A stretch of 64,000 bases of DNA from an uncultured Rhodospirillaceae bacterium (GCA_964390005.1 CAYMGM010000001.1:129839-193838); one strand, 5' to 3'. Shown: positions 13,576 through 58,712, numbered from the stretch's first letter. Notes: a model not told the origin generated them from the letters alone. Program-made: numbers and translations.

Positions 13576-13815
13576 TCAAAGCACAGTTACCTTGTAATCC
13601 TCAATAACCAAATTGGCGAGAAGCTTTTCGGCCATGGCTTTGGCGGCTTCGGCGGCTTTGGCCGGGTCCGTTTCGGCAACGTCCAAGACGATGGTTTTGC
13701 CCATGCGGACTTCGCCGATGCCTGCAAAGCCCATGCCCGCCAAAGCGTGGCTGATGGCTTTGCCCTGCGGGTCCAAAACGCCTTCTTTCAACATGATATC
13801 AACGCGCAGTTTCAT
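13576..13815 (-). CDS. purS: phosphoribosylformylglycinamidine synthase subunit PurS
   Basis: 79 aa. [21 protein letters not shown] is the classic PurS N-terminus. It overlaps the purC stop in operon arrangement. Confidence 0.85.
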
Positions 13816-14596
13816 TTTTCTTCTCGCTTACGTTTAAAAGGTTGACGATCTTAACTGTTTGAGCGGCGGGGGGTTCTTGTAGAATCCCCAAGCGCCGCGC
13901 AACATCTTGATAGGCCTCTTCGACGCGGCCTAAATCTTCACGGAACCGATCCTTGTCCATCTTTTCGTTACTGAAACGGTCCCATAGGCGGCATGTGTCG
14001 GGGCTGATTTCATCGGCGACGACAATGCGCAGTTCGTCATTGTCCCACAGACGGCCAAACTCAAGCCGAATGTCGATCAAACGGATACCCGCGCCCAAGA
14101 AAAGGCCGGAAAGATAGTCATTGACGCGCAACGTTAGCGCCATGATCTCGTCCATTTCGGGCGGCGCGGCCCAGCCAAAAGCCGTGATATGCTCGTCTGT
14201 GACCATGGGATTGGCGAGGTCGTCTTTTTTATAGAAAAACTCGACAATTGAGCGCGGCAAGGGGGTGCCTTCAGGGATGCCAAGCCTTTTGGCCATCGAA
14301 CCAGCCGCCGCGTTGCGCACAACGACTTGAATGGGAATCATGTCGACTTGGCGAACCAATTGTTCGCGCATATTTAACCGGCGTATAAAATGGGTTGGAA
14401 CGCCCATTTCGCCGAGTTTGGTCATCAAAAACTCAGAAATGCGGTTGTTAAGGACGCCTTTGCCCGTAATGGTGCCTTGTTTTGTTTTATGAAACGCCGT
14501 GACGTCGTCTTTAAAATATTGAATCAACGTGCCCGGCTCAGGCCCTTCGAACAGAACTTTGGCTTTTCCTTCATAGATGCGATGCCGTCTGTTCAT
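13799..14596 (-). CDS. purC: phosphoribosylaminoimidazole-succinocarboxamide synthase
   Basis: 265 aa. [18 protein letters not shown] and DIRLEFG motifs are canonical for PurC. Confidence 0.9.
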
Positions 14597-29369: not shown

Positions 29370-29446
29370 CGGAGAGTAGCTCAGCCTGGTAGAGCACTGC
29401 TTTCGGGAGGCAGGGGCCGGAGGTTCGAATCCTCTCTCTCCGACCA
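29370..29446 (+). tRNA. tRNA-Pro (anticodon CGG)
   Basis: Cloverleaf folded by hand. Acceptor CGGAGAG/CTCTCCG, D-arm GCTC-AGCCTGGTA-GAGC, anticodon stem CTGCT/GGCAG with loop TTCGGGA (anticodon CGG), a T-arm with GGTTCGAATCC, discriminator A, and an encoded CCA. Confidence 0.85.
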
Positions 29447-29486
29447 GTCAAAGAAAAAGGCCCCTTTATGGGGCCTTTTTCTTTGA
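29447..29486 (+). terminator. rho-independent terminator immediately 3' of tRNA-Pro
   Basis: AAAGAAAAAGGCCCC-TTTA-TGGGGCCTTTTTCTTT hairpin with a U-tail. Confidence 0.7.
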
Positions 29487-29615
29487 CTAATTTGGTAGAG
29501 GATACGAACCGGAGAAGGAGGTTTGACCAAACAGTCTGGGAGACTGTTTGGCGCGAGGCGAAGCCGAGATCTGAGCAGCGCGAAGATCAAAAACAGACTT
29601 TAAGTTTGTTTTTGC

Positions 29616-29674
29616 AATCCTCTCTCTCCGACCAGTCAAAGAAAAAGGCCCCTTTATGGGGCCTTTTTCTTTGA
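29616..29674 (+). repeat. 59-bp perfect direct repeat of the tRNA-Pro 3' end plus terminator (a second copy of 29428-29486)
   Basis: AATCCTCTCTCTCCGACCAGTCAAAGAAAAAGGCCCCTTTATGGGGCCTTTTTCTTTGA occurs twice, 129 bp apart. This is an att-site-like scar. Confidence 0.85.
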
Positions 29675-29914
29675 AGGATCGGATGGAGGCGGTAAACCGC
29701 TATATTTGATCGCTGGGAAGGTCAAAGCCACCTTTGGGTAAGGCAGTCGTCGCATATAAAAGAACGATTGTTGGCCCCATCCTGTGCAAGCTTGTTAATA
29801 ATGTATCTTTTTGCGCCTTGTCGATAATTTTATTGTTGTGTGGGAGCCGAAATGAAGTTAGTCTTCGAATCGAATAGACCTTATTCCGAATCTTCTCAAG
29901 AAGGATGTCTTGTA

Positions 29915-30466
29915 ATGAGAATTTTAAAATTTTTAGGCATTATGACCCTTTTGATGGGGCTCTCTTCTGCCGCACAGGCTTCGACGTTAGCTTTTGATCT
30001 TTCGACAGACCCGTCGGGAAGCGGCTTGTTAGCGTCAGGCAAAGGGGCTTTGACCGACAACACGCTGACCTTGAGCTCGATGCCAAGCTACAGCCGTTTG
30101 GTTTTGACCTTCACGTTTATCCCTGCAGCTATCGGGGCAAGTGTTTCGACAGATTATAATGGAAACATTGCTGGGGTTAGCTATATGGGGCCTTCGACTC
30201 CTTACGCTTTTAAGAATACCACGTTGGACCATGGCGTCACGGGCACGCTGGAGGTTTCAAGCTCGGGGGCGGCACTTACCGTTAAAAACATGACGCATGA
30301 TCTGTATACCTTCCAGAATATGCTGGCGGTTTATTTCAGAAATTGTACAGAGGGCGTTGTCAATTATAGTTATACATTGACAGCCATTCCGCTTCCTGCC
30401 GTTTTGCCGCTGTTTGCGGTTGGCGTCTTGGGCTTGGGCGCTGCCAAGAAGCGCCGCAAAGCTTAA
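29915..30466 (+). CDS. secreted protein with a VPLPA-CTERM-type (PEP-CTERM-like) C-terminal sorting signal
   Basis: Signal peptide MRILKFLGIMTLLMGLSSAAQA. The extreme C-terminus is IPLPAVLPLFAVGVLGLGAAKKRRKA, that is, a (V/I)PLPA motif, a TM helix and a basic cluster. The ORF track starts at 29840, but the ATG at 29915 has an RBS. Confidence 0.55.
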   Translation: MRILKFLGIMTLLMGLSSAAQASTLAFDLSTDPSGSGLLASGKGALTDNTLTLSSMPSYSRLVLTFTFIPAAIGASVSTDYNGNIAGVSYMGPSTPYAFKNTTLDHGVTGTLEVSSSGAALTVKNMTHDLYTFQNMLAVYFRNCTEGVVNYSYTLTAIPLPAVLPLFAVGVLGLGAAKKRRKA

Positions 30467-30482
30467 GGCTTTGGGAATTAAA

Positions 30483-30516
30483 AAAAGGGGGCCACCGGCC
30501 CCCTTTTTTGTTTTTA
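30483..30516. terminator. bidirectional rho-independent terminator between convergent genes
   Basis: AAAAGGGGGCC-ACCG-GCCCCCTTTTTTGTTTTT. A-run on one side and T-run on the other. Confidence 0.7.
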
Positions 30517-30524
30517 TGTTGGGC

Positions 30525-31748
30525 TTAACGTCGCGGGAAAAGCCGCGCATCCTCTGGCGTCGGATCGGCGGGGATCTGCGCGCGCGCGTGGCAGTCTTGC
30601 GCCTCGGTTAAAAGGTTCTCAAGAAGGTCCGTGAACAGAACAGGTTTCTCGGCCGCTTCCCACAGGAAAAAGCCAAACGAGCCAGGGCATGGGTTGGCTT
30701 CGTTAAACCAGACATCGCCTGTCACTTCGTTGCAGAGAAAATCAAGGCGCGGGACGCCTGTGCCGCCTGTCGTTTCAAACACCGTTGCCGCCCAAGCGCG
30801 GATATGCGCCTCCATTTCTGGGGCGATTTGCGGGTTGATTTCGCGCGTCAGCGATAACATCCCTTCGCTGGGTTTGGCACCGGGGGTTTTAGATCCGCCC
30901 ATTTTGGGGCTGCCATCCTTTGTGCCGCCTGCGCAATATTTCGTGCGGAAGTCTAAAAGCTCGGTCGAGCGCTTGGGCTTTTCAATCGCCGAGGTTTGGA
31001 TAAGGCCGTTGATGCGGCGCACGGCCACGTTATATTCGACCATGTTCTCGACAAAAGGCTCGAGCAGGGCCGTGTCGTCGAAACGGAAAATACCCGGCAA
31101 GACGTCGGCAACTTCTTGAAAATTATCGACACGTGCCACACCGATGCTGCTTCCCAAATGGGCTGGTTTGATGCAGCAAGGAAAGGCGACATCGCCCATC
31201 AGTGCTTCCAATTCGGCGGCGGTCAGCATAAGCCCCTCTAGCGGGCGTTTGATTTCAAGGAAAGGAAGTTGCGGAACGTCTGTTGCGGCGATCATGCGCT
31301 TGGTCGCGGCTTTGTCCATCAAAACCGCCGAGGCCAGTTGGCGCATGCCGGTATAGGGGACGTTGGCCGTCTCGAACAGGCCCTGAATGCGGCCATCTTC
31401 GCCGACAAGCCCATGAAAAGCCAGAAAAGCGATATCAAAGGGGATCAGGCGCGTTTTGCCGAAAACCCCTTGGGGCATCGTGCGCAGGCAAGGCGTCTCG
31501 GACGGGCCGATATGAAGCGTCACCTGCGTACAGGCCCGCATCGCCTCGCCATTCGGAATATAGAAAGAGCGGTCGCGCAAAGCCTCGCCAATCAGCCAAG
31601 CGCCATTGGGGGCGATATACAAGGGCTGGGCGTCGTAGCGGGCCGGGTCCAAAGCGTCCAAGGCTTGAAGCCCCGTGATGATGCTGACATCATGTTCGGG
31701 CGAACGTCCGCCGAAAAGGACAAGGACTCTTGTTTTTTGACCGGTCAT
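30525..31748 (-). CDS. D-alanine--D-alanine ligase family ATP-grasp enzyme (divergent, with a long omega-loop insertion)
   Basis: N-terminal VLVLFGGRSPEHDVS, a central ATP-grasp region, and the C-terminal RLDFLCNEVTGDVWFNEANPCPG motif, all typical of Ddl. An extra ~35-aa insertion (KYCAGGTKDGSPKMGGSKTPGAKPSEGM) sits before the C-terminal motif. The start is placed at MTGQKTRVLV (31748), whereas the ORF track gives 31826. Confidence 0.8.
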   Translation of the reverse strand: MTGQKTRVLVLFGGRSPEHDVSIITGLQALDALDPARYDAQPLYIAPNGAWLIGEALRDRSFYIPNGEAMRACTQVTLHIGPSETPCLRTMPQGVFGKTRLIPFDIAFLAFHGLVGEDGRIQGLFETANVPYTGMRQLASAVLMDKAATKRMIAATDVPQLPFLEIKRPLEGLMLTAAELEALMGDVAFPCCIKPAHLGSSIGVARVDNFQEVADVLPGIFRFDDTALLEPFVENMVEYNVAVRRINGLIQTSAIEKPKRSTELLDFRTKYCAGGTKDGSPKMGGSKTPGAKPSEGMLSLTREINPQIAPEMEAHIRAWAATVFETTGGTGVPRLDFLCNEVTGDVWFNEANPCPGSFGFFLWEAAEKPVLFTDLLENLLTEAQDCHARAQIPADPTPEDARLFPRR

Positions 31749-31868
31749 GTGAATAATCCGCTTGATGAGACAAAGCCTTGTTGCGCTTTGTCGGTCGAGA
31801 AAAATCAGGGGCCAGCATGCCCCCAATGGCAGAAAATTGTCAAGTCAGCCCATAGGTAAGGCTTTTCG

Positions 31869-32663
31869 TTGCAGCAAAATCCTGTGCATAACGGGCCCCC
31901 GGGCCTCATCGCTCATTCTTTTGACGGCGTGCCTTTGGGGCAATCGCCGTTTCTGATCGTTTGGGGGCATGGCTGGGGACATAATCGGTCTGTCTTTGCG
32001 CCGTTCGCCGCTTCTTTGTCGCGGCAGGCTTCGCATCTGTTGATCGATTTTCCCGGCTTTGGCGCGTCGCCCATGCCGCCGGAGGTTTGGGATACCGCCG
32101 CTTATGCCGATGCTGTGGCCTCTTTGCTCGCGCCGCTGCGCGAACAGGTGCCATTTATCGTGTGGGTGGGGCATTCCTTTGGCTGCCGCGTCGGCATTCA
32201 ACTGGCGGCGCGTCATCCCAAGCTGGTTGATGCGATGGCTTTGATGGCCGGGGCGGGGTTGCCGCGCCATCGCTCGCTTGCGCAGCGTCTTCGTATCAAA
32301 GGCCGCATTCTGTTCTTTAAACTTTGTAAGAAATTGGCCCCGCTGGTCGGGATCAGCGTCGAGGATTTGCGCAACAAATTTGGCAGCGCCGATTATCGTC
32401 AAGCTGGCGCGATGCGCCCGATTTTTTTGAAAACGATCAGCGAAGATCTAACGCCGCAGGCGCGTCAAGTCGCGTGCCCGACGCTTTTACTGTACGGCGA
32501 GCAAGACACCGAAACGCCGCCCGAGATTGGGCAACGTTTGGCCACCTTGATAAAGGGCAGTGAGCTGACCCTTTTGCCGGGGCTGGATCACTACACAATT
32601 TTAGATCGCGGGCGGGCTCTCGTTTTGAAACGCCTGACCGCTTTGATGGAGCGCCTGTCATGA
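31869..32663 (+). CDS. alpha/beta-hydrolase fold protein
   Basis: HGWGHN oxyanion region and a GHSFG nucleophile elbow. 264 aa. TTG start, with an alternative GTG at 31884. Its stop overlaps the start of the next gene (ATGA). Confidence 0.7.
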   Translation: MQQNPVHNGPPGLIAHSFDGVPLGQSPFLIVWGHGWGHNRSVFAPFAASLSRQASHLLIDFPGFGASPMPPEVWDTAAYADAVASLLAPLREQVPFIVWVGHSFGCRVGIQLAARHPKLVDAMALMAGAGLPRHRSLAQRLRIKGRILFFKLCKKLAPLVGISVEDLRNKFGSADYRQAGAMRPIFLKTISEDLTPQARQVACPTLLLYGEQDTETPPEIGQRLATLIKGSELTLLPGLDHYTILDRGRALVLKRLTALMERLS

Positions 32664-34261
32664 CTTCTTTTGGCACGTTGTTGTCGTTGGCTTTCTTTTT
32701 GTATTTTTTAAGCCGTCGCTTGCCGCGTCTTTTGCATATTTTTCAGCAAGAGGAATATGACGGCGCGCGTTTTCTGGCGTGGATTTTGCGCACCTTGGCG
32801 TTCGATCGCCGCGTTTCGGCGCTTTTGCTGGTGGCCGGTGTGGTGGGGGCGCTTTCGCCCGGCGATGTCAAAGCTTATTTGCCTGCCGTTGTGCTGGGGC
32901 TTTCGGCGCGGTACGAACCTGATCCCCGCCAAAGCGCCAAAAAGAAACTGGCGATGACGGCGCGCGCGTCGCGCATTTATTATGTTTCTTTGATTTTGGC
33001 CGGTTTGGCCGCTTGGGGCGGGCTGGCGCTGGGGCACAGTTTTGGCGCAGTGGTCGTGATGCAGCTTTTGCCGCTGACCCTTGTGATCGGCAATGGGCTG
33101 CTCGCGCCCTATGAAACCATGCTGCAAGCCCGTATTCGCCGCCAAGCGATGCAGCATTTGCAGGAAATAGCGCCGCGCGTCGTGGGCATTACGGGGTCTT
33201 TTGGTAAGACGTCGGTCAAACATATTCTGGGCCATGTGTTGACGCTGAACGCGCCTACGCTTTTTACGCCGGGCAGCGTCAATACGTTGATGGGAATCTC
33301 GCGCGTGATCCGCGAAAATCTGCGCAAAGGCTGTAAGTTTTTCCTCGTTGAAATGGGGGCCTATGGCGAAGGCTCGATTGCGCGTTTGTGCGGGTTGACG
33401 CCGCCTTCGGCTGGTATTGTCACGGCTTTGGGCGCGGCGCATTACGAACGGTTTGGCTCGCTGGACGCCGTGGCGCATGCCAAGTTCGAATTAGCCGACG
33501 CTGTTTTAAAGGCCCAAGACGGTTTCGTTGTCGTCCATGAACAAGTTTTGCAGCAGCCCTATGCGCGCGACTATGTCGCCGCGCACCGCGCGCAATTTGT
33601 CGTTTGCGGTGTCGAGGCCGATGCCGATTTGCGTTATGAAGCGCCGCTTCAGACTCCAAACGGTCTTGAGGTCGCGGTGGCGTGGCAAGGACAAAACTAC
33701 ACCCTTTTTGCCCCGCTTTATGGGGTGCAGCATGGCGGGAATATGGCGCTGGCCTTCGCTTGCGCGGCGAAGCTTGGCATCGCGCCCGATCGCATTGTGG
33801 CCGCTTTGCGCAGTACGCCGCAAATCACGCATCGTTTAGAGGTCAAGAATCTGAACGAGCCATCGGTAATGATTGATGATGCCTATAATTCAAACCCGGC
33901 TGGTTTTCAGGCGGCGCTGGGCATTTTGGACATGCTGGGGCAGCATAAAAAAGCCCGCCGCGTTTTAGTGACACCGGGCGTGACCGAGCTTGGCGTTCAA
34001 CATGACGCTGTTCACAAAACCTTGGGGGAAGAGGCGGCGGCGCGGACGGATATTGCGCTGGTTGTCCGGCCCGATGTTTTGAAGTCCTTTATCGAAGGCT
34101 ATGAAAGCGCTAGCGGCACTGGAAAAGTCGTGCCTGTCGCCGATTTGACAGCGGCGCGGGCGTGGCTTGCGGCCCACCCGGCGGCAGCGCCGTTTACAGG
34201 CGATGTCGTTTTGTTCGAAAACGATTTGCCGGATGTTCTTGAGCGCCGTTTGAGCCTTTAA
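32660..34261 (+). CDS. membrane-anchored Mur ligase family protein (MurF-like)
   Basis: An N-terminal ~170 aa with about 4 predicted TM helices is followed by the Mur ligase P-loop GITGSFGKTSVKHIL, a central domain, and the C-terminal DDAYNSNP motif as in MurF. 533 aa. Confidence 0.75.
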   Translation: MTSFGTLLSLAFFLYFLSRRLPRLLHIFQQEEYDGARFLAWILRTLAFDRRVSALLLVAGVVGALSPGDVKAYLPAVVLGLSARYEPDPRQSAKKKLAMTARASRIYYVSLILAGLAAWGGLALGHSFGAVVVMQLLPLTLVIGNGLLAPYETMLQARIRRQAMQHLQEIAPRVVGITGSFGKTSVKHILGHVLTLNAPTLFTPGSVNTLMGISRVIRENLRKGCKFFLVEMGAYGEGSIARLCGLTPPSAGIVTALGAAHYERFGSLDAVAHAKFELADAVLKAQDGFVVVHEQVLQQPYARDYVAAHRAQFVVCGVEADADLRYEAPLQTPNGLEVAVAWQGQNYTLFAPLYGVQHGGNMALAFACAAKLGIAPDRIVAALRSTPQITHRLEVKNLNEPSVMIDDAYNSNPAGFQAALGILDMLGQHKKARRVLVTPGVTELGVQHDAVHKTLGEEAAARTDIALVVRPDVLKSFIEGYESASGTGKVVPVADLTAARAWLAAHPAAAPFTGDVVLFENDLPDVLERRLSL

Positions 34262-34437
34262 ACATCGCGCCAAGCATTGTGCATCGCAGCGTAAAAGAGG
34301 CCATAATTTTGCTGCGCCGCAACATGGTTAATATTTCTTGTAAGGCCGTTTTTCTTGTGCTTTTCTGAGCGCTTCGGAGCTTCTTGTTCAAGAAGAGGAT
34401 CCGTTTTGTTTGTCTCAAAGAAAGAACGCAACCGATT

Positions 34438-34689
34438 ATGTGTGCTTTGCAACAAGAAAAACTTCGCGCCTGTTTCACAGAAGCCTTAGTTTTGCCCGCC
34501 GAGACGGATTTAGAAACGCTGCGCTATCAATCCATACCGGCGTGGGATTCGATTGGGCACATGCGTTTGATCGCGGCGATCGAAGGCGCGTTTAACATCA
34601 TGCTGACAACGGACCAGATTTTGGATCTCAGTTCGTATGCCAAAGCGTGCGAGATTTTGGGGGCTCATGGTGTCGCTAGCGAGTCCTGA
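34438..34689 (+). CDS. acyl carrier protein
   Basis: 84 aa from MCALQQ. The phosphopantetheine-attachment context is WDSIGHMRLIAAIEGAFNI (DSI/DSL motif with the Ser). Confidence 0.7.
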   Translation: MCALQQEKLRACFTEALVLPAETDLETLRYQSIPAWDSIGHMRLIAAIEGAFNIMLTTDQILDLSSYAKACEILGAHGVASES

Positions 34690-35425
34690 TCCATCTGACG
34701 TGCGTCCCGTCGCCGTCGTCACTGGCGCTTCGCGCGGGATTGGCGCGGCCATCGCGCGGTGCTTGGCGCGTGATGGCTATCGCTTGGCGCTGACCGCACG
34801 CGGACATGACGCGCTCATCGCTTTGCAAAACGATCTGGGAAGCGAAGACGTTTTTGTCATGGCGGGCGATGTTGCCGATACGGCTTTTGTGCAAAGCTTT
34901 TATCAAGCGGTGCAAACCCGCTTTGGCCGGATTGATGTGTTGGTGGCCAATGCCGGACAATTGGCCAATGCGCCGCTTGGCCTGATTGCGCCCGAGATGG
35001 CGGACAAGGCTTTTGATGTCAACGTGCTTGGCGTTCTTTCTCACATGCAGATGGCCGCGCGTTTTATGCGCCGTACGAAACAAGGCGCGATGATTTTGAT
35101 GGGCAGTATTATCGGCACGCAGGGCGGCATTGGCCAGACCGTTTACGCGGCGACCAAAGCCGCTTTGGTTGGCATGGCGCTTTCCGCGGTGAAAGAGCTG
35201 GGGCCGGACGGGATCACCGTCAATGTCATTGCGCCCGGCATGATCGATACCGACATGTTGGCCGATTTGTCTGACGCGAAGATTGCGGCGCGTCTTGAGC
35301 AGGTGGCCCTGCGCCGCGTCGGCCAACCGCAGGAAGTTGCGGATCTCGTCTCTTTTCTGGCGTCTGACAAGGCGCGCTATATCACAGGCCAAGTCATTGG
35401 CATTGACGGAGGAATGGTGATTTAA
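34667..35425 (+). CDS. SDR-family oxidoreductase (3-oxoacyl-ACP reductase-like)
   Basis: TGASRGIG cofactor motif, an NAG motif and YAATKAAL (catalytic YxxxK). About 252 aa. It overlaps the ACP stop. Confidence 0.8.
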   Translation: MVSLASPDPSDVRPVAVVTGASRGIGAAIARCLARDGYRLALTARGHDALIALQNDLGSEDVFVMAGDVADTAFVQSFYQAVQTRFGRIDVLVANAGQLANAPLGLIAPEMADKAFDVNVLGVLSHMQMAARFMRRTKQGAMILMGSIIGTQGGIGQTVYAATKAALVGMALSAVKELGPDGITVNVIAPGMIDTDMLADLSDAKIAARLEQVALRRVGQPQEVADLVSFLASDKARYITGQVIGIDGGMVI

Positions 35426-36835
35426 ATGATCGTTTTCACACTGCCTTTTCTGCCCAATACCGTGTTGCATCGCGCGCTTGTTCCCGACGATACACCTGCC
35501 TTGTTCGATGACAAATCGGTCGCGTGGACGACCTATGGCGAGGTGCGTGAGAAAATCGACGCCATGCAGGTTTGTTTTGCCGCGCTTGAAAAAGATCTGA
35601 TCTTCTGCGTCGCGCCGCGAACGGTCGATGGCGCTGTGGCCTATATGGGGGCAACGGCTTCAGGCCATGCTGTCGCGCTGGTCGATCCTTCTATGACGCA
35701 TTTGCGCGGCGTTGTTGCCGCGTACCGTCCGCGCTGGATCATGGCACCGCTGGATCATGCGTATCAAGGCTATGGCAAGGTCGAAGATTTTCCTTTGACG
35801 GGGATGGCGCTTTGGAAACGCTTTGGCGAAGCGGGCGGCTTTATCCATCCGCGCCTTTATTTGATTTTGCTGACATCGGGATCGACCGGCAGCAGCAAAG
35901 GCGTGCGCCTTTCTTATGCAAATGTGGCCAGCAACACGTCGGCGGTGATCGAAAGCCTGTCGATGGAGGGCGGCGTTTGCGCGGTGGGGCATTTGCCTTT
36001 GTCTTATTCCTTTGGGCTCTCGGTTCTTAACACGGCGATGGCTGTGGGCGGGCGCGTTTTGCTGACAGAAGAGGGGATGATGAGCCCCGCTTTCTGGTCG
36101 CGTGCCCGCGCGCAAGAAGCCAATCTGTTCCCCGGCGTTCCGTATCATTTTGAGATGCTGCTGCGCCTGTCGCTGGAAGGGCTGAAGATTCCGTCGCTGA
36201 AAACCTTTTTGCAGGCTGGCGGTAAAATGCCGGTTCCCATGACGCAAAAAGTTCTTGAGGCGGTCATGGCGCGGCAAGGCGGGCTTTACATCATGTATGG
36301 CCAAACAGAAGCCAGCCCGCGCATTTCATCGTTTCCGCTTCACTTGCATCCAGAAAAAATCGGCTCATCAGGTATCCCCATGTCGGGCGGCCATGTCGAG
36401 ATCGTCGATAACGAGATTATCTATCACGGACCGAACGTGATGATGGGCTATGCGATCACGCGCGAAGATTTGTGCAAAGGCGACGGCATGCATGGGCGCT
36501 TGCCGACGGGCGATCACGGCTCTGTGGATGCTGACGGTTATTTGACCGTTTTGGGCCGCGAAAAACGCATTGCCAAGCTTTACGGTCAGCGCGTGGCGTT
36601 GGACGATCTGGAAAAGTTTGCGGCAGCATTGGCCCCCGTCGTTGCGATTGAGCGCGATCAGCAAATCTTGCTGATTACCACGGCGGCAGAAGAAAGCCTG
36701 CGCGACCGGATCAAAGCCTTGGTGATGAGCGAAACGGGCTTGCCGCCGACATGGCTTGAGGTGCGCTCGGTTGCCGATATTCCGCACCAGCCGAACGGCA
36801 AGGTCGATTACCAGCGCCTCCGAGCCGAAGCGTGA
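35426..36835 (+). CDS. AMP-dependent synthetase/ligase (acyl-CoA or acyl-ACP synthetase-like)
   Basis: AMP-binding motif LTSGSTGSSKGV and a YGQTEA motif. 469 aa. It starts 1 nt after the SDR stop. Confidence 0.8.
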   Translation: MIVFTLPFLPNTVLHRALVPDDTPALFDDKSVAWTTYGEVREKIDAMQVCFAALEKDLIFCVAPRTVDGAVAYMGATASGHAVALVDPSMTHLRGVVAAYRPRWIMAPLDHAYQGYGKVEDFPLTGMALWKRFGEAGGFIHPRLYLILLTSGSTGSSKGVRLSYANVASNTSAVIESLSMEGGVCAVGHLPLSYSFGLSVLNTAMAVGGRVLLTEEGMMSPAFWSRARAQEANLFPGVPYHFEMLLRLSLEGLKIPSLKTFLQAGGKMPVPMTQKVLEAVMARQGGLYIMYGQTEASPRISSFPLHLHPEKIGSSGIPMSGGHVEIVDNEIIYHGPNVMMGYAITREDLCKGDGMHGRLPTGDHGSVDADGYLTVLGREKRIAKLYGQRVALDDLEKFAAALAPVVAIERDQQILLITTAAEESLRDRIKALVMSETGLPPTWLEVRSVADIPHQPNGKVDYQRLRAEA

Positions 36836-37929
36836 GCCAGCAAGAGGGAACAGCGCTCGACGCTTTGTTCGCGCTTCCCTATGCCAGCCTTGCCCAAGCG
36901 GAAAAAGAGCGGCAACTGTTTCCGCTGCTGCGCGATGGGCTTGCCTATCACCGCGCGGCTTGCCCTGCTTTTGATCGGATTGTCGCGCGCGCTTTTCCGG
37001 ACGAGCCTGTGGGGCTCGATACCTTGCCCTATCTTCCGATCTCGCTGTTCAAGGACCGGCGTTTGCTTAGCGTGCCCGCGACGGAGGTGCGCGTGGCGGT
37101 TCAGTCCAGCGGCACCAGCGCCAGCGGGCTTAGTCAGGTTGCTTTAACGGCGGATGATGCGCGGCGTACCGCGCGGTCGCTCGCCTCGATCTTAAAGACG
37201 GTTTTAGGGCCTGTGCGCTTGCCCATGCTGTTCATCGACACGCCAGATGTTCTGAAAGGTGGGGGCGCTGTCGGGGCGCGTGCGGCGGCGATTTTGGGTT
37301 TAATGCCTTATGGCCGCGATCACCGTTTTGTCCTGAACGAAGCTTGGGAATTGGATGAAAATGCGCTGCTTGATTTTCTTGCCAAGAACGGGAGTAAGCC
37401 TTTTGTGATTTATGGTTTTACTTTTCTTGTTTGGCAGGCGCTGGCGCCTTTTTGCGCATCGCACCGCGTGGATCTTTCGAACGCGCTTTTGCTGCATAGC
37501 GGCGGGTGGAAAAAACTGCAAAGCCTTGCCGTTGATAATGCCGCTTTTCGCCATGCTTTTGCCGCGCAGGCTGGGCTGACACACATTGTCAATTTTTACG
37601 GCATGGCTGAAATGCCGGGTGTTGTTTTTCTGGAAAACGCAGACGGTCTTTTTTATCCGCCAAGCTTTGCCGACGTTTTGATCCGCGATCCGGTGACGCT
37701 TGCGCCGCTGCCTGTGGGGCAAGCGGGGCTGGTGCAGTGGATCAATCCACTGCCGCGCAGCTATCCCGGCCTTTCCGTTTTGACCGAAGACCTTGGCATT
37801 GTTGAAACCATCGATAGCAATGTCAGTGGTTGGAAAGGCCAAGCGCTTCGTCTGATCGGGCGCGCCCCAAAGGCTGAAATGCGCGGCTGCAGCGATGTGT
37901 TGGCGCAAAAAATAAGCGGGGAGGTCTGA
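36832..37929 (+). CDS. LuxE-family acyl-protein synthetase
   Basis: VQSSGTSASG, LHSGGWKKL and VLTEDLG correspond to the FTSSGTNG, ITGGGWK and IVTDDVG motifs of Vibrio LuxE. 365 aa. 4-bp overlap with the upstream gene. Confidence 0.7.
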   Translation: MSQQEGTALDALFALPYASLAQAEKERQLFPLLRDGLAYHRAACPAFDRIVARAFPDEPVGLDTLPYLPISLFKDRRLLSVPATEVRVAVQSSGTSASGLSQVALTADDARRTARSLASILKTVLGPVRLPMLFIDTPDVLKGGGAVGARAAAILGLMPYGRDHRFVLNEAWELDENALLDFLAKNGSKPFVIYGFTFLVWQALAPFCASHRVDLSNALLLHSGGWKKLQSLAVDNAAFRHAFAAQAGLTHIVNFYGMAEMPGVVFLENADGLFYPPSFADVLIRDPVTLAPLPVGQAGLVQWINPLPRSYPGLSVLTEDLGIVETIDSNVSGWKGQALRLIGRAPKAEMRGCSDVLAQKISGEV

Positions 37930-39128
37930 TGATCCAGTTTCATTTTGCCGCCACGCCACTAAAGGATTTAGAAGATCTTCGTAACGCCTGCCTTGCCGCG
38001 AAAGCGCAGCCTTTGGCTTTTGCCGACCCTAGCGTGCAGGCCTTTGCCCGCGCTTTGTCGGCGGGGTTGCTACAGGATCCTTTGGCCAAAGCTTTTCCGG
38101 CTTGCACGGCCTTTGGGTTTTGGCTGCGGGCCGCTGCGCTGGATGATTTAACGGCGCGTGTGCAAGCGGGATCGGTTGGACGCGCGCCTGCCGGGGCTGT
38201 CTTTTTAATGCCCCCTTCCAACGTGACAACGCTTTTTGCTTACACGGCGCTTTTATCACTTTTATGCGGCAATGTGACGCTGGTTCGCCTGCCGCAGACG
38301 CCCAGCGCGGCGCAAGATTATCTGCTGAGCCATTTTCTACGGGCGCTGGACCAAGCCCCGGATGCATTACGGCAGAAGCTGTTTCTTTTAGGTTATGGTC
38401 ACGATGACGCGATCACCACGGCCTTATCGGCGCTTGCAGACAGGCGTTTTGTCTGGGGGGCTGATGAAACAATTGCGCATATCGGCTCGTTGCCTTTGCC
38501 AGCGGGGGCGCATCATATCGGTTTTGGCGATCGCTTTTCCGCTGCGACCATCGGCGCAGAGGGTTATTTGGCTTTAGACGATCAGGCCAAAGATCATCTG
38601 GCGCGTCTGATGGCCGCCGATATTTACAGCTTTGATCAATTGGCTTGTTCGTCGCCGCGTGCGCTGTTTTGGATTGGCAGCGCCGATACGGTGCAAAAAG
38701 CGCGCGCCGATTATTACCCGCGTCTGACCGCAGCGGCTGAAGCGCGCGGCTATGCGCTTGACGCGGCTCAAGCCATTGCGCGCCGCCGCGCGGCTTTTCT
38801 GGCGCTTCATGATCTTCAAACGCAGTTCTATTGGGGGGCGTCAAAGGCGTTGGCCGTGATCGGCTTGGCGACAGCTGAAGAATTAGAGCCTTTTAAAACA
38901 GTATCTTATGGTTTTGGCCTTTTGCTTGATGCCTGTTGCCCCTCGCTTGAGGCTGTTCTATCAATAGCCAGCGCGCGCGATCAAACGCTAAGCTATGCTT
39001 GCCTGCCTGCGGTGCCGACCGAGCAAACAGCGTATGATCGAATGGTCCCGGTTGGCCGCGCGCTAGATTTTGACGTGAGATGGGACCGCATAGATTTGAT
39101 CGAGGCGATGACACGCCAGCAAGGATGA
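37929..39128 (+). CDS. LuxC-family acyl-CoA reductase-like protein
   Basis: 399 aa. It is the immediate partner of the LuxE-like gene, with a Cys-containing DQLACSSP motif in the position expected for a LuxC catalytic Cys. The family call rests partly on context. Confidence 0.5.
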   Translation: MIQFHFAATPLKDLEDLRNACLAAKAQPLAFADPSVQAFARALSAGLLQDPLAKAFPACTAFGFWLRAAALDDLTARVQAGSVGRAPAGAVFLMPPSNVTTLFAYTALLSLLCGNVTLVRLPQTPSAAQDYLLSHFLRALDQAPDALRQKLFLLGYGHDDAITTALSALADRRFVWGADETIAHIGSLPLPAGAHHIGFGDRFSAATIGAEGYLALDDQAKDHLARLMAADIYSFDQLACSSPRALFWIGSADTVQKARADYYPRLTAAAEARGYALDAAQAIARRRAAFLALHDLQTQFYWGASKALAVIGLATAEELEPFKTVSYGFGLLLDACCPSLEAVLSIASARDQTLSYACLPAVPTEQTAYDRMVPVGRALDFDVRWDRIDLIEAMTRQQG

Positions 39129-42159: not shown

Positions 42160-42942
42160 TTATCCGACGCGGTGCGCCATTAATTTTTTTAATTCGGCTA
42201 TGGCTTTAGCAGGATTTAGGCCCTTTGGGCAAGTGTTGGTGCAATTGAGAATAGTATGGCACCTGAAAGCTTGGAACGGATCTTCCAATTGGTCAAGTCT
42301 TTCGGCGGCATTGTCGTCACGGCTATCGACGACCCAGCGATAAGCCTGCAGCATGACGGCGGGCCCAAGATAGCGGTCGCCATTCCAGAAATAGCTGGGG
42401 CAACTGGTCGAGCAGCACATGCAGAAAATGCATTCATAAAGGCCGTCCAGCAAGGCGCGCTCTTCCGGCGATTGCAGACGTTCTTGATCCGGCGGGGGCG
42501 TGGTGTCGTTTTGCAGCCAAGGCTTGATCGAGGCCAACTGGGCGTAAGCATGGTTCATATCCGGAACCAGATCCTTGACCACCTTCATGTGCGGCAAGGG
42601 ATAGATGCGCACATCGCCGCGCACGCTGTCGATAGGCTTGGTGCAAGCCAGCGTGTTGGTGCCGTCGATATTCATGGCGCACGATCCGCAAATGCCTTCG
42701 CGGCACGATTTGCGGAAGGTCAAAGTCCCGTCGATCTGGCCTTTGATATAAATCAAAGCGTCCAGTACCATCGGCCCGCATTTATCCAGATCAATCGTAT
42801 AGCTGTCGAGGCGCGGTTGATCGCCAAAATCGGGCGACCAACGATAGATTTTAAAGGTCTTCGAACGCTTAGCGCCTTCCGAGGCGTCGATGACGCGACC
42901 TTTAACAATTTTTGAATTGGCGGGAAGAAGAAACTCGACCAT
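42160..42942 (-). CDS. sdhB: succinate dehydrogenase iron-sulfur subunit
   Basis: [11 protein letters not shown] ([2Fe-2S]) plus two Cys clusters, [12 protein letters not shown] and [13 protein letters not shown]. 260 aa. Confidence 0.95.
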
Positions 42943-42961: not shown

Positions 42962-44725
42962 TTAGTAAACGCGGGCTTCGGGTTGGATCGTCTCGATCTC
43001 GTCCGACAGAGGGCGCAGTTGAACGGGGCGATAGCCGATGGCTGTGCTGCCATCGCTACCGACTTGAATCAGCGTGTGCTTCATCCAATTGGCATCGTCG
43101 CGCTGCGGGAAATCTTCGCGCGCATGCGCCCCGCGCGATTCCGTGCGTGACGCAGCGGCATCGACGGTCGCCAAGGCTTGGTAAAGCAAATTGTCCAGCT
43201 CAAGCGTCTCCAGCAGTTCCGAATTCCAAACCATCGACCGGTCGGAAAGGCCCAGATCCACTTTCTTGGCAAAAGCGGTGCGGATTTGCGCTTGCGCTTT
43301 TTCCAAAATGGGACCGGTGCGGAAAACGCTGCATTCAGTTTGCATGATCTGCTGCATCTCTTGACGCAGATCGGCGGGTTTGACGGGGCCTTTGGCGGTC
43401 CGATAAAAATCGAGACGCGCGACAGCTTCGTCGCCTGCGCCTTGCGGCAAATCGGCATGCGGCGCGCCCGGCGCGATCAGCTCGGCAGCGCGCTGCGCCG
43501 CGGCACGGCCAAACACAATGATATCCAGCAGCGAGTTCGATCCCAAACGGTTGGCGCCATGAACCGACACGCAAGCCGTCTCGCCAATCGCCATCAAGCC
43601 CGGCACGTCAGGCACTTCGCCATGCAGGCTCGATGGAATGCCGCCCATGCAATAATGCACCGTCGGCACAATAGGAATAGGCGCTTTGGTCACATCGACG
43701 CCCGCAAAAATCTGAGACGTCTCTGTAATGCCGGGCAGGCGCTCTTGGATAATCTTGGGGTCCAGATGCTCGATGTGCAAATGCATGTGGTCTTTGTTGG
43801 GGCCGCAACCGCGGCCTTCGCGGATCTCAATCGTCATCGCGCGGCTGACCACGTCGCGGCTGGCCAAATCTTTGGCTTTAGGTGCGTAACGCTCCATAAA
43901 GCGCTCGCCCAGCGCATTGGTGATATAGCCGCCTTCGCCGCGCACGCCTTCGGTGATCAAGCAACCCGTGCCATAAAGGCCGGTGGGGTGGAATTGAACA
44001 AACTCCATATCCTGAAGTGGCAGACCAGCGCGCAAAACCATGCCGTTGCCGTCGCCGGTGCAGGTGTGCGCCGCTGTGGTCGAAGCAAAAGCGCGGCCAT
44101 AGCCGCCCGTCGCCAAAACGGTTTGATGCGCGCGGAAGCGGTGAAGCGTGCCGTCGTCAAGATTCCAAGCCATCACGCCGCGGCAAACGCCATCGGCATC
44201 GATGATAAGATCCAAAACAAAATATTCGATAAAGAAGGTCGTGCCATGCTTCAGCGCCTGCTGATACAGCGTATGCAAAATCGCATGACCTGTGCGGTCG
44301 GCGGCGGCGCAGGTGCGCTTGGCCGTGTGCTTGCCATAATGCGTCGTCATACCGCCAAAGGCGCGCTGATAAATCCGGCCTTCCGGCGTGCGGCTGAAGG
44401 GTACGCCGTAATGTTCCAATTCAATGACGGCGGGGATAGCCTCGCGGCACATATATTCAATCGCGTCTTGATCGCCTAGCCAATCGGACCCTTTGACCGT
44501 GTCGTATACGTGCCAACGCCAATCGTCTTCGCCCGCATTGCCAAAAGCCGCGCCAATACCGCCTTGCGCCGCGACCGTGTGGCTGCGCGTCGGAAAGATC
44601 TTGGACAGACAGGCCGTCTTTAATCCTTTTTCCGCCATGCCAAAGGCTGCGCGTAACCCAGCGCCGCCCGCGCCCACGACGACGACATCGAAAGTGTGAT
44701 CGATAATGGTATAGGCTTGCGTCAC
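42962..44725 (-). CDS. sdhA: succinate dehydrogenase flavoprotein subunit
   Basis: FAD-binding [14 protein letters not shown], the covalent-FAD His region [10 protein letters not shown], and an HGANRLG motif. 587 aa. Confidence 0.95.
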
Positions 44726-45930: not shown

Positions 45931-46178
45931 GAGACCCCTCCCTAGCTTTGTTACAGTTACCTATTATCCACCATTTCTCTTACGAAATGAATAAGAGAAC
46001 ATAAGTCATGCCTAGCCATTTGTAAAATAATGATATTTTTCAATATCAAAACACACATTTGTTGGTAAAAGCTGCGTGAATCAGGTTTAAAGCCCATGAT
46101 TCCTTGCGAAAAAAGGCGTTTTGTGCCAAAAAGTTGCTTGAAAAGGCTCCAGCAAAAAACAAAGAAAAAGGGAATTTC

Positions 46179-47285
46179 ATGAAAGTCGCCGTCGTTCACG
46201 AATGGCTGACCACAAAAGCGGGATCAGAATCTGTCATTGAACAAATACTGACCTTGTATCCGGAAGCCGATTTGTTTGTTTTAGTTGATTTTTTGCCCGA
46301 AGCGGATCGCGCTTTTCTGGCTGGCCACAGGATCAAAACATCTTTCATCCAGAACTTACCTTTTGCGCACAAAAAATACCGTTCTTATTTGCCGCTGATG
46401 CCGCTGGCGGTTGAGCAGTTTGATTTGTCGGGCTACGACCTTGTTATCAGCTCGTCGCATGCGGTGGCCAAAGGGGTGCTGACAGGCCCCGATCAAGTTC
46501 ATATTTCCTATGTTCACAGTCCCATTCGCTATGCGTGGGATCTTCAACACATCTATTTGCGCGAGTCAGGGCTTACCAAAGGCCTGCGCGGTATCTTGGC
46601 TAAATTGATTTTACATTATATGCGCCTGTGGGATTGCCGTACCGCTTGTGGCGTCGATCAGTTTGTCGCGAACTCAAACTACATCGCGCGGCGGATTAAA
46701 AAGGTCTATGGCAGGTCGGCGCAAGTTGTTTATCCGCCGGTCCATTTAGATAAGTATATTGCTGGCACGCAGCCGCGCGAAGATTTTTATTTGGCGGTGT
46801 CGCGCTTTGTGCCTTACAAAAAGATGTCGTTGATCGTCGAAGCTTTCACGCGCTTGCCTGATCGGCGCTTGATCGTCATCGGCGACGGCCCAGATTTGAA
46901 AAGCGCAAAAGAGCAAGCGAGCGCAAACGTGACCTTTCTTGGCTACCAAGCGCAAGATGTTGTGATCGATCACATGCAACGCGCCAAAGCCTTTGTCTTT
47001 GCGGCCGAAGAAGATTTTGGCATCGCCCCGGTCGAGGCGCAAGGCTGCGGCACGCCCGTGATAGCCTTTGGCCGCGGCGGCGCAACCGAAACGGTCGTTG
47101 ATGGTCAAACAGGCGTGTTGTTTCCCGAGCAAACGCCTGAATCCCTGATCGAGGCGATTAAAAAGTTTGAGGTCCTCGCGCCGCAACTCAAGGCGACAAC
47201 CATCCGTGAAAATGCCGAGCGTTTCAGCGTCGCACGTTTCAAGGAAGGCATTCAAAAGATCGTCGACGAAGCGATGAAAGCGTAA
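46179..47285 (+). CDS. glycosyltransferase family 4
   Basis: GT-B fold. The C-terminal EDFGIAPVEAQGCGTPVIA motif (E-x7-E). The start is placed at MKVAVVHEWL, whereas the ORF track gives 46104. Confidence 0.8.
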   Translation: MKVAVVHEWLTTKAGSESVIEQILTLYPEADLFVLVDFLPEADRAFLAGHRIKTSFIQNLPFAHKKYRSYLPLMPLAVEQFDLSGYDLVISSSHAVAKGVLTGPDQVHISYVHSPIRYAWDLQHIYLRESGLTKGLRGILAKLILHYMRLWDCRTACGVDQFVANSNYIARRIKKVYGRSAQVVYPPVHLDKYIAGTQPREDFYLAVSRFVPYKKMSLIVEAFTRLPDRRLIVIGDGPDLKSAKEQASANVTFLGYQAQDVVIDHMQRAKAFVFAAEEDFGIAPVEAQGCGTPVIAFGRGGATETVVDGQTGVLFPEQTPESLIEAIKKFEVLAPQLKATTIRENAERFSVARFKEGIQKIVDEAMKA

Positions 47286-47294
47286 CGGCCCCTT

Positions 47295-48380
47295 ATGCGT
47301 CTTCCCCTTTACATCAATGCGCGTTTTCTTGGCAAACCGATCACGGGCACGCAGCGTTTTGCGCATGAGATTATAGCTGCCCTCGATAAAAAAATAGGTG
47401 AGGGCGCACAAGTTTTCTCGAAGGTCGTGTTACTGGCGCCTTCTGGGACGCCGCAGCCGACGGGGCTTGAGCCTATTGGCTTTCAAACATGCGGCCATCT
47501 ACAAGGCCATTTGTGGGAGCAATGGGATTTGTGGCGTGCCAGCCATGACGGCCTGCTGCTCAGCCTGACGAATAGCGGCCCCGTGTGCCACCCGCGGCAT
47601 TTGGTCGTCATTCATGATGCGTTGGTTTACCGGTTGCCCGAAAACTACGCTTGGGCCTATCGCTTGTTTCACCAGAATCTTGGGCGTCTTTTGGCGCGTC
47701 GCGCGCGCGTTGGCACGGTCTCGGCCTTTTCGGCCTCTGAACTAGCCGCCGTCTTTCACGGCCAATCATCGGACTACCCCGTTTTTTACGATGGCTTCGA
47801 TCACATTCTGCGCCTGACGGAAGAGCCCGCCATCCTTGATCGCCTGAACCTGCGCGGTAAACGCTTTTTCCTTTTTGTCGGCTCGCACGTTCCCAACAAA
47901 AACCTAGCCCGCGCGATCCAAGCGTTTATGGCGCTGAAAGACGACACGCTTTCATTTGTGATTGTCGGCTCAACACAATCAAAGGTTTTTGCCGCGACGC
48001 AACTTCAACTACCACCGACGGTCTTGATGCCGGGGCGCTTGACGGATGGCGAGATCGTCGCGCTTTATCGTCATGCTTATGCGCTGGTTTTTCCAAGCTT
48101 GTACGAAGGTTTTGGTATTCCGCCGTTGGAAGCGTTGACGTTGGGCTGCCCCGTGATTGCCTCGCGCATCGCGCCGGTCCAAGAAGTGTGCGGCGAGGCT
48201 GCCAAATATTTTGATCCGTTAGATACCGCGGATATGGCGGCGCAACTGCGCGCGAGTCTTAATGATCCCGCCTGGCGCACAGCCTGTGTGGCAAAGGGTA
48301 AGCAGCGCTTGCCAAACTTCACATGGCGCGCAAGCGCCGAGAAAATATGGCAAGAATTGCTATTCATGAAGAAGGATTGA
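47295..48380 (+). CDS. glycosyltransferase family 4
   Basis: EGFGIPPLEALTLGCPVIAS, the GT4 E-x7-E motif. 361 aa. Confidence 0.8.
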   Translation: MRLPLYINARFLGKPITGTQRFAHEIIAALDKKIGEGAQVFSKVVLLAPSGTPQPTGLEPIGFQTCGHLQGHLWEQWDLWRASHDGLLLSLTNSGPVCHPRHLVVIHDALVYRLPENYAWAYRLFHQNLGRLLARRARVGTVSAFSASELAAVFHGQSSDYPVFYDGFDHILRLTEEPAILDRLNLRGKRFFLFVGSHVPNKNLARAIQAFMALKDDTLSFVIVGSTQSKVFAATQLQLPPTVLMPGRLTDGEIVALYRHAYALVFPSLYEGFGIPPLEALTLGCPVIASRIAPVQEVCGEAAKYFDPLDTADMAAQLRASLNDPAWRTACVAKGKQRLPNFTWRASAEKIWQELLFMKKD

Positions 48381-48385
48381 TGGTG

Positions 48386-49435
48386 ATGAAAAAAGAATTC
48401 ACTGGTGCCCGGTATGGTTTTATTGATGCCATTCGCGGGATAGCGGCCTTGCTCGTGATGCTACAACACTCGCTTTATTCCAGTGGCTTGCTTGGTGACA
48501 TCCATGGCCCTTTAACAGGCTTTATTCCAACGATGCTTGAGTTGGGCGAGACGGGGGTCGTTGCCTTTTTTCTTGTCTCAGGGTTTGTTATTCCGCTCAG
48601 TTTAGAAAAAACGGCAAACTTTAAAATGTTCTGGATACACCGTATTTTGCGTATTTATCCGCTGTATCTGTGCGTCTATTTTGTCAGTTTGGTTTTGCAC
48701 CTTGGAACTTTTGATATCTCAGGCTTTTCAGCGCACGTCGTCAATTTTCTATCGCATCTATTAATGATCCAGGAATATGTCAAACAACCTAATCTTGTCG
48801 GCGGGTCGTGGACGCTTTCGATTGAAATGATCTGGTATATCGGTCTTTCAGTTTTATTCTTGTTGGCCTTGAATAAAAAGCCGCGTTTGCTTGTCGCTTT
48901 AGCCGTTGCCGCTTCATTTTTGGCATGTGTCGTTTGCGCGTTTGGGCCTCACCTTCCTATGGGAAGACTTTCAATGCTGGTTTGTTGTGTGTTGGGTTTC
49001 GTTTGTTACCGTTATGGGAAAAGCGATTTATCCAGCCGCGAATTTTGCTTTTTGGCAGGGCTTTTAATCATTGCGATTGTTACAAACCTGATGACTGGAT
49101 TTTTGTTGTTTCCATCGGCATATCCCACAGCCAGTTTTGCAATGGTTCGAGGTTCTTGGTCTTTAGGTATTTTGATTTTTTTTATACCTTTTCTCTTCCG
49201 TCAATCGTCCATCTGGGACAACAGCCTTTTGTCTTTCCTTGGGAAAATAAGTTATTCGATCTATTTGGGGCACGGTGTTGTCTTGCACCTGCTTGAAGAT
49301 AGCCCGCTAACAGGGTGGTGGTTTATTGCCGCTGTTTTTGTATCGACAATTCTTGTTGCGAGTCTGTCCTACCGCTATATTGAGCAACCGCCCATTCAAT
49401 TCGGTAAAAAACTGAACTCTTTAAGGCAACTCTAG
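48386..49435 (+). CDS. acyltransferase family 3 membrane O-acyltransferase
   Basis: About 10 TM helices. The N-terminal FIDAIRGIAALLVMLQH motif is typical of acyltransferase-3 (OatA/OafA-like). Lower GC than the flanking genes. Confidence 0.75.
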   Translation: MKKEFTGARYGFIDAIRGIAALLVMLQHSLYSSGLLGDIHGPLTGFIPTMLELGETGVVAFFLVSGFVIPLSLEKTANFKMFWIHRILRIYPLYLCVYFVSLVLHLGTFDISGFSAHVVNFLSHLLMIQEYVKQPNLVGGSWTLSIEMIWYIGLSVLFLLALNKKPRLLVALAVAASFLACVVCAFGPHLPMGRLSMLVCCVLGFVCYRYGKSDLSSREFCFLAGLLIIAIVTNLMTGFLLFPSAYPTASFAMVRGSWSLGILIFFIPFLFRQSSIWDNSLLSFLGKISYSIYLGHGVVLHLLEDSPLTGWWFIAAVFVSTILVASLSYRYIEQPPIQFGKKLNSLRQL

Positions 49436-49556
49436 GTAAAATCGGAGTCTATGACGTCGGCAGGGCGCGGCCATAGCCAAGCGCGGTTACGTGGCGTTCG
49501 CTTTATAAATAAGGAACGATGACGGATATTTTTCTTCGATCGTTTTTTCTATATCT

Positions 49557-50492: not shown

Positions 50493-50636
50493 AGTGCCGT
50501 CTCGATCTTTTGTTTCAGTATTTCTTATGTTATGAACAGGATCATCCGAGATGGCAAGTTCTCACTTTTCGAATGAAGATAAAAAGCGTGTCTTCAAAGA
50601 TTTTGGTTAATATTTTGTCCTTCGCTTAGACAAAAA

Positions 50637-53098: not shown

Positions 53099-53241
53099 GA
53101 CAAAGATCGTTAATGTTTTTGCTCTCTTGGAGGGCGAAGATAACAAATAATATATTGCACTTAGCCATTGAATAGGCAATCTTGTTTTGTGGATTTGAAG
53201 GGATTTTATATTCCTTCTTTTTATTGTAAGGGAGTAAGCAG

Positions 53242-55624: not shown

Positions 55625-55644
55625 GCGTTCTTGATTTCTAGAGA

Positions 55645-55920
55645 TCAAGCAAAAACCCCGACGACGGACATTCCTACCTCTGGCGAAACAATAGCTATCG
55701 TCGTGGGGAGGTCGTTTGAAAAATCACTGTCGCTGCGAATGCAAGTGTAATAAAGACTTGGATCGCCAGCTCCTGGCAACAGGCTTTCGTTGCCGTTTTC
55801 GTCCGTTATGGTTTGTTCGGCGCGACCCTTTTGGATCGGGATATAATTTTTAAAACTTGCCACGAAGTTTTCTAAAAGAGCTTCATTATCACAAGATAAA
55901 TATGTGTCGATATAAGCCAT
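55645..55920 (-). CDS. hypothetical protein (AT-rich, phage-like triplet member)
   Basis: 91 aa. It is the last of three tightly packed minus-strand ORFs with GC clearly below the surrounding genes. Confidence 0.3.
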   Translation of the reverse strand: MAYIDTYLSCDNEALLENFVASFKNYIPIQKGRAEQTITDENGNESLLPGAGDPSLYYTCIRSDSDFSNDLPTTIAIVSPEVGMSVVGVFA

Positions 55921-55927
55921 CTTTCAC

Positions 55928-58612: not shown

Positions 58613-58712
58613 ATAAGTCCATTTCTATGGTTTTGTTAGCGCTTTAGACGCCTTGACCTTGGCGTTATCTTGGCACAGCATAAAGAAAAAGCCAATTCGG
58701 AAAGGCCTCACA

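Follow-up and report, generated by a model that had tools for sequence, protein, structure and literature searches.

Locus and gene structure

The 64-kb stretch of DNA that we analyzed (the window) contains at 29915-30466, on the plus strand, an open reading frame (ORF) of 183 codons followed by TAA; read from the window sequence, the ORF, its coordinates and its C terminus are exactly as the original prediction gave them. The gene also lies where that prediction placed it, between a possible att-like tRNA scar and a cluster of ligase-like genes. Comparisons with a close relative refer to L002, a 1303-nt contig that bears an orthologue and comes from a ~95%-identical relative. The features of the locus are as follows.

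29370-29446 (+): tRNA-Pro(CGG), identified by ARAGORN
29616-29674 (+): second copy of the tRNA-Pro 3' end with its terminator hairpin (first copy 29428-29486; first ~59 nt identical)
29900-29905 (+): Shine-Dalgarno-like GAAGGA with a 9-nt spacer to the ATG; motif and spacing also in L002
29915 (+): start codon ATG, read from the sequence
29915-29980 (+): Sec signal peptide (SPase I), residues 1-22, MRILKFLGIMTLLMGLSSAAQA; predicted cut after AQA
29981-30385 (+): passenger domain of an uncharacterized family, residues 23-157 (~135 aa), predicted ten-strand beta-sandwich
30386-30400 (+): motif IPLPA of VPLPA-CTERM type, residues 158-162, aligned with 78 foreign tails
30401-30445 (+): hydrophobic transmembrane segment VLPLFAVGVLGLGAA, residues 163-177, with the conserved pattern LPLF plus G-x-x-G-L-G
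30446-30466 (+): basic cluster KKRRK (residues 178-182), then A and TAA; the family consensus here is R-R-R-K
30464-30466 (+): stop codon TAA, read from the sequence
30481-30509 (+): strong hairpin terminator, a 13-bp stem followed by a T-run, kept in L002

The deposited version of the protein (P0001, 204 aa) begins 21 codons 5' of position 29915, and its upstream ATG adds an extension at 29852-29914 behind which the signal peptide would be buried. L002 carries an in-frame stop within the region of this extension, and its own gene starts with the same MRILKF at the same Shine-Dalgarno spacing. Because of this stop and the shared Shine-Dalgarno/ATG arrangement at MRILKF, 29915 is the better start; it is likely the true one, and the start of P0001 is probably a mis-annotation placed 21 codons too far upstream. 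Judged by sequence features alone, residues 1-22 form a signal peptide with a basic n-region, a hydrophobic core, an A-x-A motif and no lipobox Cys, with predicted cleavage between MRILKFLGIMTLLMGLSSAAQA and ST (SSAAQA, then ST). This layout is kept across the family alignment (AAQA or ANA, then A-T), and residues 3-17 form a helix in the structure model, at the position of the signal peptide. The presence of Sec signal peptide features agrees with the proposal that the protein is secreted. At the 3' end, the hairpin separates the stop at 30466 from the convergent Ddl-like gene, and the gene is thus a single-gene unit.

On the tRNA side, the gene follows directly on tRNA-Pro(CGG). The direct repeat here comprises the 3'-terminal 19 nt of this tRNA and the hairpin, with the two copies 188 nt apart. 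The second copy is degenerate in L002, and the 64-kb window holds no third tRNA-end copy that would delimit an island containing the gene; the repeat may be either an att-like scar or the product of a local duplication. On the other side, the ligase cluster (30525-39128) encodes a Ddl-like ATP-grasp protein (206 bits, under the Ddl cut-offs), a MurF-like Mur ligase with ~3 N-terminal TM helices (176 bits; cut-off 288), an alpha/beta hydrolase, an SDR, an AMP-forming ligase, a LuxE-like acyl-protein synthetase and a 399-aa protein without a family match, all members of the cluster being sub-threshold for named families. We considered the AMP-forming ligase as an "exosortase A system-associated" protein (TIGR03098) and rejected this assignment, as its score of 94.9 bits, far under the cut-off of 592, reflects generic similarity.

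Further along the window, an exopolysaccharide cluster of lower G+C (0.44-0.52) at 46104-60041 encodes three GT4 and two GT2 transferases, an acyltransferase_3, a Wzx-like flippase, a pyruvyl transferase and a weakly Wzy-like membrane protein of 486 aa. Inside this cluster, the minus-strand ORF at 55928-56911 is an odd neighbor for glycosyltransferase genes: it scores 116 bits (cut-off 36) with NF048003, the "GTA/phage head spike fiber domain". As to the organism itself, SdhA (42962-44725), SdhB (42160-42942) and PurC (13799-14596) each stand alone when ~15 billion proteins are clustered at 90% identity, and a cluster look-up of 13 window proteins found no 90% relatives. Because these three proteins and others are singletons at this identity, the source lineage is isolated and poorly sampled.

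The C-terminal tail and its family

The last 26 residues of the protein read IPLPA-VLPLFAVGVLGLGAA-KKRRK-A-stop, where VLPLFAVGVLGLGAA is an uncharged hydrophobic stretch and residues 163-182 form a helix in the structure model. The original prediction had described a (V/I)PLPA motif, a TM helix and an Arg/Lys cluster, which we recover as IPLPA, VLPLFAVGVLGLGAA and KKRRK; the tripartite tail is defined in Haft 2023 (bioRxiv 10.1101/2023.06.07.544157). The HMM search with TIGR03370 (VPLPA-CTERM) that had been proposed as a check fell short, giving 14.0 bits against a cut-off of 25.35 (E 0.037) for a match that is full-length but weak, spanning profile positions 1-25. The general PEP-CTERM model PF07589 gave 14.3 bits against a cut-off of 20.7, and TIGR02595 gave no match to the window protein at E<=10. 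The tail alone also had weak matches to the PEP-CTERM protein families floc_PepA (19.6 bits), EDSAP-1 (16.2 bits) and TLD_A (14.5 bits), and TIGR03370 was the only sorting-domain model of the library to report the tail. An orthologue, P0002, is likewise under the TIGR03370 cut-off at 15.2 bits, and the window protein has the lowest TIGR03370 score among all sequences tested. An annotation pipeline would leave this tail unnamed because the curated cut-offs are not reached.

A custom HMM was built from 78 nonredundant VPLPA tails of other organisms, with the window protein and its orthologue left out. With this model the window protein scores 37.1 bits and the runner-up among 917 window ORFs 6.3; the training sequences themselves reach 41 to 62 bits. 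Of the 15 columns best conserved in the 78 tails, the window tail departs from the consensus in one. It matches the consensus at P, L, P, A, L, P, L, F, G, G, L, G, R, R and K. The P, L, P and A of the motif occupy columns conserved in 70 to 78 of the 78 tails, and its first position is I rather than V in 7 of them. The exception is the V directly after the motif, which replaces a near-invariant A and occurs in none of the 78 other tails; the end of the tail is, in addition, Lys-rich rather than Arg-rich.

The tail is the only one of its kind in the window, where a six-frame regex scan of stop-to-stop ORFs of >=50 aa for P-x-P, a hydrophobic stretch and a basic C terminus found no second ORF with such an end. 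The exact tail PLPAVLPLFAVG, searched as codons in a metagenome scan, gave 0 matches, and the same scan with [VI]PLPAVLPLF gave 74 stretches, 6 of which came through a loose tail filter; two of these six are true tails (L086 and L158), neither of this lineage. A search of the 40-aa tail against a set of 5.8 billion proteins returned no candidate with three common 5-mers.

High-identity relatives were limited to the window protein itself and P0002 (177 aa, 59% identical, tail VPLPAVLPLFAVGVLGLGVAKKRRKA, motif VPLPA). A profile of these two proteins, searched against 1.84 billion cluster representatives, returned 28 proteins at E<1e-3 and identified 27 further proteins, nearly all ending VPLPAALPLF…G…RRRK. 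Many of the matches are full-length and of similar size (e.g., P0006, E 1.6e-12, and P0007, E 4.8e-9), and the tails of the homologues, [VIT]P[LVI]PA-A-LP[LM][FML]-x-x-G-…-[RK]3-5, stand in exact register with the window tail. Besides the orthologue, nine of these proteins were scored with TIGR03370; four pass (P0006 at 30.5, P0007 at 27.8, P0012 at 27.4 and P0013 at 26.0 bits), and the other five, which have canonical VPLPAALPLF tails, fall below the cut-off at 20.9 to 24.8 bits. This indicates that the cut-off is conservative even for canonical tails.

The same tail also occurs on unrelated passengers, among them P0025, which has an Npun_F0296 exosortase-dependent surface protein domain, and Methylophaga proteins of 419 to 498 aa. 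A sorting signal is defined by just this modularity, in which many passengers share a single tail (Haft 2023, bioRxiv 10.1101/2023.06.07.544157). We scanned GTDB, with one genome per species, using the pattern [AS][VI]PLPA[AV]LPL and a 6-tail alignment, and of the 455 stretches found, 150 were confirmed and 79 loci kept; the species of the window is absent from this collection, and the top tail identity to the window tail is 65%. The hosts include Sneathiella (many loci, several per genome), Methylophaga, metagenome-assembled genomes (MAGs) of Rhodospirillaceae and Thalassospiraceae, and Bdellovibrionales, with single genomes of Nitrospira, Desulfobacterales and Sulfotelmatobacter. The tail had been described as a variant of some alphaproteobacteria, but its range is wider and extends to Methylophaga, Bdellovibrionales, Nitrospira, Desulfobacterales and Sulfotelmatobacter. 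ORFs with complete tails in these loci number 53, with a median length of 225 aa, and tandem tails are frequent (three in L005, four in L020 and five in L055).

The VPLPA-CTERM class and its enzyme XrtD are curated knowledge already, and our literature search found no experimental study of either. Membership of the window protein in this class is supported, with all architectural features present and the curated HMM threshold missed. The original assignment to an exosortase-type VPLPA-CTERM signal thus gains support from the homologue tails, from the modularity of the tail and from the XrtD genes that adjoin such tails elsewhere.

Passenger domain and divergent segment

AlphaFold, run with a 17-sequence family alignment, predicts the passenger domain as a ten-strand beta-sandwich (pLDDT 77.7) that stands between an N-terminal helix, corresponding to the signal peptide, and a C-terminal helix, corresponding to the tail. 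A model based on a 2-sequence alignment (pLDDT 59.8) was too poor and was set aside. Such a fold suits a binding or matrix module, and nothing in it suggests catalysis. Family members have in common the motif LPSxSxITFTY, an x-N-L-S whose Asn is invariant, and Y-x-V-x-A immediately ahead of the tail. We note that N125 (window 30287-30295, N-M-T) is the sole invariant residue of the passenger and is nearly always followed by x-S/T (NLS, NMT, NFT, NYS and others); a glycosylation sequon and a structural Asn are both possible readings of this residue.

Alignment with L002 delimits one further feature, in a pattern that rests on two sequences:

29606-30384 (no strand): divergent island of ~780 bp, with a sliding identity to L002 of 0.35 to 0.72 and with indels

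The island covers the second tRNA-end repeat, the upstream region, the core of the signal peptide and the whole passenger domain. Beside it, identity to L002 is 0.83 to 0.98 on the tRNA side, 0.90 in the tail and 0.93 to 0.98 in the Ddl-like gene, the 3' end of which has 94.7% DNA identity. The two sequences differ in the Ddl-like gene by 1 nonsynonymous and 13 synonymous changes in 95 codons, and in the passenger by 59 nonsynonymous and 34 synonymous changes in 127 aligned codons, with 7 gap codons in addition. Half of the passenger codons in which the amino acid is conserved carry a synonymous change (34/68, or 50%), against 14% of all codons in the neighboring gene. This difference argues for recombinational exchange of an old divergent allele rather than point mutation alone, and the overall picture resembles allelic replacement or diversification of a surface protein.

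The tail has 25 of 27 residues identical to those of P0002, while the passenger is about half identical. We considered whether the 12 DNA-identical codons of the tail amount to unusual conservation and rejected this, as the flanks in L002 are 93 to 98% identical and the tail is simply background. A tail at background level has not diversified in the way the passenger has, which is different from being under extra constraint. An exposed surface protein would be expected to look like this, with the export signal and the tail conserved and the part between them hypervariable.

Candidate partner exosortase and competing readings

The original prediction stated that no cognate sortase is encoded in the window, and we confirm this for exosortases: Pfam and NCBIfam searches of the polytopic ORFs found none, and tblastn with three XrtD proteins against the 64-kb window gave a best E of 0.2. 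The polytopic ORFs of the window are the acyltransferase_3, the Wzx-like flippase and the weakly Wzy-like protein. Exosortase systems typically accompany exopolysaccharide loci (Haft 2023, bioRxiv 10.1101/2023.06.07.544157), and the exopolysaccharide cluster at 46104-60041 encodes no exosortase. In other genomes, genes passing the model for the "VPLPA-CTERM-specific exosortase XrtD" (TIGR04152, cut-off 400 bits) lie <=10 kb from a VPLPA-tailed gene at L016, L010 and L068 (533, 495 and 472 bits), and all three carry a fused EpsI domain. Of the two enzyme types named in the original prediction, exosortase and rhombosortase, the partner of such tails is the exosortase (XrtD), not a rhombosortase. 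Such proximity is the exception: XrtD lies <=10 kb from the tail at 3 of the 79 foreign loci, so that its absence from the window is uninformative.

Ten polytopic ORFs near VPLPA genes had been taken for exosortases and none proved to be one (0/10); a CSG-motif regex gave the real ones. A profile of the three XrtD proteins retrieved 7793 exosortase homologues at E<1e-30, of which the best 120 all have PF09721 plus PF11984, many being named XrtD by NCBI or JGI, and none of these 120 could be tied to the source genome. The two singletons that were the most plausible XrtD of the source genome belong to other samples. We also observed that two unrelated genomes share the order acyltransferase_3, GT2, XrtD and an ~800-aa TPR protein (L083:2042-6970 and L084:2048-6941), with XrtD overlapping the GT2 stop in both; this may be a conserved XrtD operon.

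We hypothesize, with a probability of roughly 75%, that the gene encodes a small envelope or surface protein with a divergent VPLPA-CTERM signal and that its cognate enzyme is the exosortase XrtD. The protein shares with the VPLPA-CTERM/XrtD system the (V/I)PLPA motif, x-LPLF, the Gly-spaced hydrophobic helix and the basic extreme C terminus, as well as a signal peptide at the N terminus and a secreted passenger of small size (~200 aa), and relatives of its passenger domain pass TIGR03370. It differs in scoring 14.0 rather than 25.35 bits, in having V for the near-invariant A and a Lys-rich end, and in having neither XrtD nor a second substrate within its 64 kb. The PEP-CTERM/XrtA system of floc-forming PepA proteins (Zoogloea, Aquincola; PMC9850573, PMC9012009) has the same tripartite tail, an enzyme of the same superfamily and likewise small Ser/Thr/Asn-rich secreted proteins; the weak tail-only match to floc_PepA (19.6 bits) and the exopolysaccharide cluster 16 kb off in the window add to the likeness. 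The window motif, however, is PLPA and not PEP, PF07589 stays at 14.3 against 20.7 bits and TIGR02595 does not report the protein, and no genes for XrtA, EpsI, PrsK/PrsR or PrsT are present among the window ORFs examined.

Two further systems serve as analogies. The archaeosortase ArtA of Haloferax volcanii belongs to a homologous enzyme family and acts on PGF-CTERM proteins, whose C-terminal helix is removed and which are then re-anchored; ArtA is the sole member of the superfamily with biochemical support (Haft 2023, bioRxiv 10.1101/2023.06.07.544157), but it is archaeal, with another motif and a lipid acceptor, and the analogy is one of mechanism alone. LPXTG proteins and sortase A of Gram-positive bacteria have an analogous tripartite signal and the same surface-anchoring logic, but with an unrelated fold, another motif and a peptidoglycan acceptor, which makes them inapplicable to a diderm alphaproteobacterium-like genome.

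Under the proposed XrtD reading, the N-terminal signal peptide would direct Sec export over the inner membrane and be cut after AQA, and the C-terminal helix (VLPLF…GLGAA) would keep the protein inserted in the inner membrane, with KKRRK facing the cytoplasm, as the architecture implies. On the precedent of ArtA/PGF-CTERM and of XrtA/PEP-CTERM genetics, an XrtD-type polytopic Cys/Arg/His exosortase, encoded elsewhere, would recognize (V/I)PLPA at the periplasmic face and remove the helix and basic tail, and the beta-sandwich would probably be handed to an acceptor and so reach the cell surface or the extracellular polysaccharide matrix. The exposed beta-sandwich of ~135 aa may then be a module for binding or for the matrix; that it diverges so extremely between genomes that are nearly identical would fit exposure to phage, predator or host.

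The main competing explanation, which we regard as unlikely, is that the tail is an orphan in a genome without the cognate exosortase, in which case it would remain an uncleaved transmembrane anchor with the beta-sandwich periplasmic on the inner membrane. The lack of an exosortase within 64 kb, the single tail of the window, the lowest TIGR03370 score of the tested sequences and the unique A-to-V change beside the motif are all compatible with this, but such an absence is normal for these loci, given XrtD <=10 kb away in only 3 of 79. A plain anchor, moreover, needs neither P-L-P-A-x-L-P-L-F nor the G-x-x-G-L-G spacing, and the motif is kept in both known alleles despite ~50% divergence elsewhere in the protein.

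A more speculative scenario, to which we give little credence, starts from the divergent island: the ~780-bp segment at 29606-30384, comprising the upstream region and the passenger, would be swapped by recombination between strains as a variable surface-protein cassette, with the conserved tRNA-side sequence and the sorting-tail DNA as anchors. Alternatively or additionally, the tail, with its A-to-V change and Lys-rich end, would be orphan or retargeted in a lineage without XrtD and be read by an undescribed sorting enzyme.

It is improbable that the signal is read by another exosortase subclass (XrtA, XrtW or another) or by an unrelated protease instead of XrtD. The tail does fall under the VPLPA-specific cut-off and has equally weak matches to floc_PepA, EDSAP-1 and TLD_A (19.6, 16.2 and 14.5 bits), and the subclasses are close, since the XrtW and XrtA models score XrtD proteins well too. 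Against these points, the motif is PLPA and not PEP, the VPLPA consensus is matched at nearly every conserved column, TIGR03370 alone among the sorting-domain models of the library reports the tail, and the relatives by passenger domain are true TIGR03370 proteins. A chance resemblance, in which a hydrophobic C terminus happens to end in a few lysines, is compatible with the sub-threshold curated HMM scores but is effectively refuted by the profile search, the family alignment and the custom HMM, given the 30-bit gap to all other window ORFs, the full-length homology to a family that consistently bears the tail, and the presence of a signal peptide.

On the XrtD reading, P0001, a protein nameless in the databases, can be labeled a putative XrtD-type exosortase substrate, and a poorly sampled lineage is predicted to have an XrtD system. 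The results also show that the curated VPLPA-CTERM cut-off passes over evident members, and they define a small uncharacterized beta-sandwich family that is consistently VPLPA-tailed. If the divergence of the passenger recurs in more strains, the protein would be a candidate for a surface protein that is exposed to phages, predators or hosts.
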